A DNA stretch of 64,000 nt from a virus. Both the position numbers and the translations under genes were made by a program. The stretch spans positions 26,218 through 90,217 of the IMG/VR virus record IMGVR_UViG_3300014202_001569; one strand, written 5' to 3'. Positions 26,116-47,070 of this stretch are shown here, piece by piece. Position 1 is the first letter of the stretch; every line of letters starts with the position of its first letter. The notes beneath the pieces were generated by a model, which did no database searches, was not told the origin of the DNA, and was given only the letters and a program-made list of their open reading frames with translations.

Positions 26116-26245
26116 TAAAATCGTATTTTATTAATTTAACCATACTCCTTTATCTCATGGAAACTAGACTCATTATTGTAGCCGTAACCGCCGCCGCTGG
26201 CTACGCATTCGGATACATTCTCGGTTCTATCCTCAGGAGAAACAA

Positions 26246-46649: not shown

Positions 46650-46711
46650 CGGTCGTTCTCCCCTTTTGGTGAAAGTGTCGGAACACCTAGTTTGGTACAA
46701 TTGCAATTCAG

Positions 46712-46847
46712 TGGACCAGTCGGGAATTGAACCCGATTCCAGTCGATTTGCTGACAAACTACGCTACTTGTGTTGAGGCATCTTTTCGCGTCTGACCTAC
46801 CACGGTCAAGCCTGTCACTTGGATCGCTGTCGAAACCTGTCTGGCCC
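46712..46847 (-). ncRNA. ssrA: Minimal tmRNA-like RNA (136 nt)
   Basis: GGGCCAG/CTGGTCC-A acceptor with G3.U pair; ACAGGTTTCGAC D-loop; P2 helices AGCGAT/ATCG(A)CT and TGACAGGCT/AGTTTGTCA; GGAA connector; TCGGG-TTCAATT-CCCGA T-arm. Confidence 0.8.
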
Positions 46848-46861
46848 GATTGTGTAAGTTA

Positions 46862-46994
46862 GCCCCTAGCGGTTATCGTCGCCGCACCTACCTGCAAAGC
46901 CTAGCGTACCATTGGCCACTGGCACGTCCTACATGGCATGTATACCCACCATTAAGAGTCGGCTCCAGGTCGCACTACATTATGCGATAGGGGC
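46862..46994 (-). ncRNA. Unknown structured RNA (133 nt), tRNA-like closing stem
   Basis: GCCCCTA/TAGGGGC terminal stem; internal stems TCGCA/TGCGA, CCTG-GAGCC/GGCTT-TG-CAGG, TACAT/ATGTA, CGTGCCA/TGGTACG and GCGG/CCGC; 5' end 9 nt after GTACC. Confidence 0.65.
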
Positions 46995-47070
46995 AACTTA
47001 ACTGGTACAATCGCAATTACATCATGCCCTAAAAAAGGGGAAGGGCTTTCGCCCCTCCCCCTCGGCCCCC

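Follow-up and report, generated by a model that had tools for sequence, protein, structure and literature searches.

Introduction

Non-decoding tRNA mimics are already known from phages. Stable RNA species 1 of phage T4 (rnaC, NC_000866 70908-71046), a non-coding RNA of about 140 nucleotides (nt), has a tRNA-like T arm and is devoid of an anticodon (PMC9697503). Bacterial Y RNAs such as YrlA (RF02553; PMC4201824) are tRNA-mimicking non-coding RNAs of similar size that occur in phages, and the tRNA-like domain of transfer-messenger RNA (tmRNA; RF00023) is a tRNA body with its anticodon arm swapped for another domain. Among self-assembling RNAs, OLE (loop L9.3), GOLLD (loop L21a), ROOL and manA have symmetric kissing loops with covariation of adjacent bases, and GOLLD, ROOL and manA are present in phages (PMC12286853; bioRxiv 10.64898/2026.07.01.735769). 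Here we describe a tRNA-like RNA encoded on the minus strand (46994→46862) of a 64,000-nt stretch of viral DNA (IMG/VR record IMGVR_UViG_3300014202_001569, positions 26,218 to 90,217; hereafter the window), which is part of a 340,934-nt phage record (genome G000). Our analysis suggests that it is probably a non-decoding tRNA mimic whose copies associate with one another, a judgement that leaves aside any job as a decoy. Relative to the mimics already known, its new element would be a pair of covarying homotypic loops on a stacked crossbar.

A covarying fold on the minus strand

Nine distinct sequences were gathered by pattern scans, neighbour proteins and a covariance model: that of the window and those named L053, L058, L019, L064, L038, L039, L067 and L094. 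They share 45-98% identity, and all stem from related large (jumbo) phages. L094, the most divergent, was recovered at 63 bits by the covariance model while outside its training set. The same model also scores ordinary tRNAs, at 47 bits or less, the Thr and Gly tRNAs of related phages being the top-scoring class I tRNAs.

In the nine-sequence alignment 96.8% of the cells are paired, and double changes occur at 26 of 42 pairs, with at least one in every helix. None of 500 shuffles scored as high, and slid controls gave 2-6 doubly changed pairs. RNAalifold reproduces the same fold. G-U cells far outnumber A-C cells (46 versus 3), indicating that the RNA lies on the minus strand; a plus-strand fold was rejected as being on the wrong strand, and a DNA-level operator or cruciform was rejected on the same excess of G-U. 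As a single sequence, the minus strand has an unremarkable folding energy (z = -1.39; 20/200 shuffles equal or better). The structural claim is therefore based on covariation across the nine homologues, and this comparative evidence supports the fold.

A preliminary description of these positions had proposed a multi-stem RNA closed by a 7-base-pair (bp) stem, with a three-way junction flanked by a D-like hairpin and by a T-like one that lacks TTC. That outline holds for the minus strand, although the description named no strand; the most distinctive feature of the RNA, two covarying palindromic loops, was absent from the description. The parts of the RNA are as follows:

46861..46994, minus strand: tRNA-like RNA gene, 133 nt plus the discriminator U at 46861; CCA not encoded
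46988..46994, minus strand: 5' strand of the acceptor stem, pairing with 46862-46868
46972..46985, minus strand: D arm, 4 bp, its loop with a single G in the window
46961..46970, minus strand: 5' strands of the anticodon-stem equivalent and of helix P2, pairing with 46890-46901 around a variable internal loop (8/8 pairs doubly changed)
46927..46957, minus strand: hairpin H1, 11 bp with one bulged G (covariation)
46939..46946, minus strand: H1 loop, G + GUAUAC + A in the window, predicted to kiss homotypically
46905..46926, minus strand: hairpin H2, 7 bp, without a linker to H1 (predicted coaxial stack; covariation)
46912..46919, minus strand: H2 loop, palindromic centre GGCC in the window, predicted to kiss homotypically
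46869..46885, minus strand: degenerate T arm
46862..46868, minus strand: 3' strand of the acceptor stem

The Rfam scan that the description had named as a check was run, and so was a homologue search, with covariation judged by the counts given above. At gathering and E-value thresholds, no Rfam family covers the RNA in the window (46862-46994) or in three homologues. No homologue was returned by blastn against annotated phages. The core pattern gave one false match only against one genome per GTDB species, this pattern being blind to divergent members like L094, and relaxed patterns found no additional members in viral sequences. No description of this RNA family emerged from a literature search in which subscription journals were thinly covered.

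A class I tRNA frame without an anticodon loop

The RNA shares with canonical class I tRNA (RF00005) a 7-bp acceptor stem, U8, A14, a 4-bp D stem, a short variable loop and C56-G57-A58. U8, A14 and C56-G57-A58 are invariant, the D loop has the standard GG in 6 homologues and the D stem covaries. In contrast to a canonical tRNA, it has no anticodon loop and no encoded CCA, its discriminator varies (U, A or G), and its T arm is degenerate. Position 54 is a purine in all nine sequences (G in 7, A in 2) and never T, position 55 is A or U, and pair 53:61 is broken in 6/9, indicating that this is not a working tRNA T arm. Consistent with this, the T loop lacks TTC in the window. Pair 3:70 is C-G in 9/9, so that alanine identity is absent. 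In place of a 7-nt anticodon loop with U33 there is a domain of about 70 nt, in which the anticodon stem is followed by a variable internal loop, a helix of 3-4 bp and a three-way junction bearing H1 and H2. Descent from a class I tRNA, with loss of the ability to decode, appears to be the best explanation of these features.

The insert lies where an anticodon loop would be, and a helix of 3-4 bp with unpaired stretches of 3 nt at its side gives it a faint likeness to a bulge-helix-bulge. A tRNA with an anticodon-loop intron would have such a layout, but a single one of 1296 in-silico splice products passes the normal threshold of ARAGORN, in one homologue, and relaxed matches show no consistent anticodon. 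T54 is moreover missing in 9/9, and a tRNA-splicing endonuclease was not found. A decaying tRNA pseudogene, which the preliminary description had named as the finding that would undo it, is excluded by the dense compensatory change. We give this pair of explanations next to no credence.

Comparison with other tRNA-like RNAs sets the family apart. T4 rnaC is not homologous to it (5.5 bits, a partial match), and a sequence and structure homology test with T4 rnaC and rnaD was negative. The T loop of rnaC is canonical, and its predicted fold includes two long hairpins and lacks a D arm; rnaC differs further in being late and located within a tRNA cluster. Unlike the tRNA-like domain of tmRNA, the RNA possesses a true D stem and no G3-U70, and RF00023 does not match it at its coordinates.

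The preliminary description had also suggested a Y-RNA-like molecule. A partner of host Ro60 would be in keeping with the tRNA-like domain and with a T loop that reads GNCGAA in 2/9 homologues, resembling the start of the YrlA motif (PMC4201824). The full GNCGAAN(0-1)G motif, however, is found in 0/9, RF02553 gives no match, the order of the parts is not permuted as in YrlA, and the ends form an acceptor stem instead of a Ro60 stem. Nor is there a Ro60 gene within about 4 kb or elsewhere in the genome: a TROVE gene was found in 0/4 related phage genomes, two of them 98% complete. A Y-RNA-like role is accordingly hard to credit, and this suggestion was abandoned.

Other expanded tRNA look-alikes were seen. 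The complete 498-kb phage G004 has two in tandem (L122:1361-1497 and L122:1501-1631) with canonical T loops; they share an insert motif, sit inside a tRNA array and form a separate family. Four viral contigs carry further look-alikes, 119-142 nt long and likewise with canonical T loops (L110:9391-9509, L111:3705-3829, L113:3591-3712 and L115:339-480), and the one in L111 has a long hairpin tipped by a palindromic loop.

Two palindromic loops at the ends of a predicted crossbar

H1 and H2 abut directly. By general junction rules, hairpins without a linker should stack, here into a crossbar with its loops at opposite ends. Of the 54 alignment columns of the crossbar a single one is a gap column, compared with 14 of the other 89.

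Each H1 loop consists of G, a 6-nt palindrome (GUAUAC, CUAUAG or GAAUUC) and A, and the centres of the H2 loops are GGCC, GCGC or GUAC. Across the nine homologues 45/45 cells in both loops are self-complementary. Columns 85 and 86, the central H2 bases, are GC in 6 sequences, CG in 2 and UA in 1, with no mismatched state, and each is the sole perfect partner of the other among 143 columns. As the two columns are adjacent, they cannot pair within one chain. The idea of kissing loops was formed on eight sequences; L094, found later, alters both loop centres, and both are still palindromic. For comparison, the centre is palindromic in about 6% of the 8-nt spacers that lie between stem strands in this genome. 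On this comparative evidence, both loops have been under selection for self-complementarity.

Adjacent-base covariation starting from GGCC supports kisses seen by cryo-electron microscopy (Kretsch et al., PMC12286853), by which OLE L9.3 and GOLLD L21a were seen to form symmetric intermolecular kisses (PMC12286853). OLE L9.3 likewise switches between palindromes starting from GGCC. The tRNA-like RNA shows this mark of self-assembling RNAs, from few independent events, and its oligomerisation is a prediction. It differs from OLE, GOLLD and ROOL in that these exceed 500 nt; it has no Rfam match to OLE, GOLLD, ROOL or manA, and none of the four is described in the papers cited above as based on a tRNA cloverleaf. 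Purines flank its loop palindromes, as they do the 6-nt palindrome in the hairpin loop of the HIV-1 dimerisation initiation site (PMC7357161), which differs in being a single loop in a genomic RNA.

We consider it likely that the H2 loops of two copies kiss, which would yield a dimer at the least. For an equivalent kiss between H1 loops the chances appear even, and somewhat poorer that H1 kisses in addition to H2 and so links copies into rings or chains with many tRNA bodies on display, as loops at opposite ends of a crossbar of fixed length would favour. With both kisses formed, rings or chains would be the simplest geometry. A closed dimer held by two kisses may be an alternative; retroviral hairpins in tandem, with kisses of 2 bp, are a known example. 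A cross-kiss between H1 and H2 was rejected, being weaker than each self-duplex in 9/9 and not compensated, as was a covariation of column 59 with columns 82 and 46, which one sequence carries.

Several points weigh against self-association. The sequences number only nine, and the pair counts come from an alignment fitted to the proposed model; the crossbar columns are already ungapped in a plain MAFFT alignment. On the tree, each loop has undergone about two independent change events. The H1 palindromes, rich in A/U, form weak duplexes (-6.4 to -6.8 kcal/mol), their outer pair could be intramolecular, and the H2 loop palindrome of L094 is just 4 nt (-4.6). The gene is optional and was not found in stretches from several close relatives or in a 595-kb relative.

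Some of these points would suit a monomeric tRNA mimic whose loop palindromes are intramolecular motifs or protein-binding sites, with incidental self-complementarity. Outer loop pairs can lengthen the stems, flanking bases pair in 6/9 H2 loops, the H1 duplexes are weak and independent changes are few. Against a monomer, columns 85/86, unable to pair within a single chain, nevertheless occupy three complementary states with no mismatch and without any other partner, and the out-of-sample L094 retains both palindromes. We therefore regard a monomer as unlikely.

The phi29 pRNA is another small phage RNA (PMC7357161). Like it, the tRNA-like RNA has a three-way junction at about 130 nt and two loops for intermolecular contact; oligomerisation through the two loops has been seen for pRNA and is predicted here. 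A phage structural RNA of this kind, oligomerising on the capsid, motor or replication compartment, is nevertheless very improbable. The loops of pRNA are mutually complementary and not palindromic, whereas here two different homotypic loops sit on a tRNA body, whose elbow would be left unexplained. The gene, besides being optional, lies in an early shuffling array away from structural genes.

Promoter, transcript and surroundings

A phage promoter motif occurs in 68 copies in the window versus 0.7 expected, and the surroundings of the tRNA-like RNA are an array of short minus-strand genes with one motif ahead of each. The 5' G of the RNA sits 8 nt past its motif. This offset is occupied by a purine in 71/77 genome copies and by a leaderless ATG in 12/77, with 3 or fewer at every other offset. 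The 12 copies with ATG exactly at the inferred +1 (window 28946-63679) suggest that many early mRNAs are leaderless. Four further homologues have their own promoter and start 8-9 nt after a similar motif, making five with the window. Comparative evidence thus backs the start at +1 that the preliminary description had predicted. The other four homologues lie 5-10 nt past a stop codon and 14 nt ahead of the next promoter motif. Neighbour genes change freely among homologues, and the five own-promoter starts together with the four placements after an open reading frame (ORF) would fit a mobile cassette. The flanking features are:

47031..47060, minus strand: terminator-like hairpin with a U run, belonging to the upstream DUF932 gene and parting it from the tRNA-like RNA (read directly; absent from the consensus-scan list)
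47003..47016, minus strand: phage promoter motif, with the 5' end of the RNA 8 nt downstream
46848..46860, minus strand: spacer past the discriminator, acting as leader of the mini-tmRNA
46709..46847, minus strand: mini-tmRNA, predicted to share the transcript of the tRNA-like RNA in this genome; a neighbour and no conserved partner

Rfam matches in the window are two tRNAs and the mini-tmRNA (RF00023, 46847→46709, 48.1 bits), which is on the same strand as the tRNA-like RNA. The 14 nt between the two (46861-46848, the first base being the discriminator N73) comprise 10 A/C, 4 U and no G, in agreement with the A/C-rich spacer described before. Scans for the promoter motif and for a consensus terminator found neither in the spacer, so that a single transcript probably spans the tRNA-like RNA, the mini-tmRNA and the next ORF. 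Assembled contigs of metatranscriptome runs X2 and X6 span the region; one crosses the upstream terminator and DNA carry-over is possible, and these runs therefore indicate neither expression nor ends. An RNA ligase and an AAA_33 protein are encoded 4-6 kb downstream, and tRNA-repair or maturation enzymes encoded by the genome include an Rnl1-like ligase, an AAA_33 kinase-like protein and two PF01743 nucleotidyltransferases.

Such an arrangement raises the question of whether the RNA is a cis-acting processing signal, similar to a t-element, at which cuts by RNase P and RNase Z release or stabilise neighbour transcripts, here the mini-tmRNA. Its position ahead of the mini-tmRNA in the window and the four homologues lodged between a stop codon and the next motif would suit this role. 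On the other hand, five homologues start at the +1 of their own promoter, the neighbours change freely, and a conserved, covarying insert of 60 nt would be needless for a processing signal. We hold this to be quite improbable.

Relation to the mini-tmRNA

In the window the tRNA-like RNA and the mini-tmRNA lie next to each other; the distance between them is about 100 nt in L058 and 6 kb in G002. No mini-tmRNA accompanies the tRNA-like RNA in G003, a genome that is 98% complete. In L053, whose RNA is 98% identical to that of the window, the mini-tmRNA has been lost at this site. The fragments L001 and L054 have a mini-tmRNA without a tRNA-like RNA nearby. Pairing between the two RNAs is no better than chance (61/200 shuffles as good), and their cofold equals the sum of the monomers. 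These comparisons indicate that the tRNA-like RNA is independent of the mini-tmRNA. Co-transcription of the two, as claimed earlier, is likely in the window and is not conserved, G003 being a case in point.

The preliminary description had further speculated that the RNA supplies the missing mRNA-like domain of the mini-tmRNA in trans. Besides adjacency in the window and proximity in L058, it has in its favour that most homologues contain a short readable stretch, for example Ala-Asp-Ser-stop, which crosses the junction and enters H1. These codons, however, lie within covarying helices and their frame shifts in L038 and L094. The independent occurrence of the two genes and the lack of special pairing leave this idea with scarcely any likelihood, and it was discarded.

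Other observations concern the mini-tmRNA itself. It contains a probable first pseudoknot (46709-46847), in which hairpin loop GGUA is able to pair with a downstream UGCC, and a UAG lies about 10 nt past it; the arrangement is conserved in L019, L001, L054 and L058. The window phage also encodes a full-length tmRNA outside the window (C1:8556-8914, 120 bits, with a tag ending in YALAA). No SmpB gene was found in the four phages examined. A relic of the mini-tmRNA in L053 (3984-4010) consists merely of its first and last few bases, joined. In run X1, 372 nt occupy the place of the mini-tmRNA; their reading as a full tmRNA was rejected, for they hold an ORF of 114 amino acids with its own promoter. 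Besides its mini-tmRNA, G002 has a weak 127-nt match to the tmRNA model (C1:24758-24884, 29 bits), with a weak YrlA match about 220 nt downstream. In L058, the interval between the tRNA-like RNA and the mini-tmRNA holds a third candidate structured RNA (1425-1512), about 85 nt in length and closed by a long stem, which was not found in G000 or at other loci.

Discussion

We propose that the tRNA-like RNA is an early phage non-coding RNA, which would be transcribed from +1 or excised at its tRNA-like ends and which may receive its CCA from the phage nucleotidyltransferases. Its anticodon stem would bear a T-shaped junction whose crossbar consists of H1 and H2 stacked, each tipped by a self-complementary loop through which copies would associate with one another. 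The bulky crossbar should bar the RNA from the decoding site and leave the elbow and acceptor end exposed; both are conserved.

The elbow and acceptor end of tRNA are recognised by RNase P, CCA enzymes, the L1 stalk and several tRNA-attacking effectors. Defences that target tRNA, and phage tRNAs that counter them, have been described (PMC11464382, PMC12409363, PMC12445682). As the elbow and acceptor end stay exposed and conserved, the assembly could act as a multivalent decoy for host proteins that grip these parts, such as tRNA-attacking anti-phage effectors, and so spare the real tRNAs. This is the likeliest single job for the RNA, and a doubtful one taken by itself. The decoy in the preliminary description thus survives as the leading functional guess, while the tRNA mimicry that it presupposed is borne out by nine covarying homologues. 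Only tentatively can we picture both kisses formed, so that crossbars of 18 bp meet head to head and tail to tail; the resulting rings or filaments, with an array of exposed tRNA elbows and acceptor ends, would then be a multivalent sponge that soaks up host proteins which bind or attack tRNA.

A short oligomer framed on tRNA was not found among the assemblies in recent reviews and cryo-electron microscopy papers (PMC12990946, PMC12286853, 10.64898/2026.07.01.735769). The function of anticodon-less tRNA-like phage RNAs such as T4 rnaC has long gone unexplained, and the present family yields a specific and cheaply testable prediction, namely self-assembly through two covarying palindromic loops. 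If true, it would represent a short natural RNA oligomer built on a tRNA frame and a ready-made building block for RNA nanostructures, and it would point to RNA-only multivalent decoys as a phage answer to tRNA-targeting immunity.
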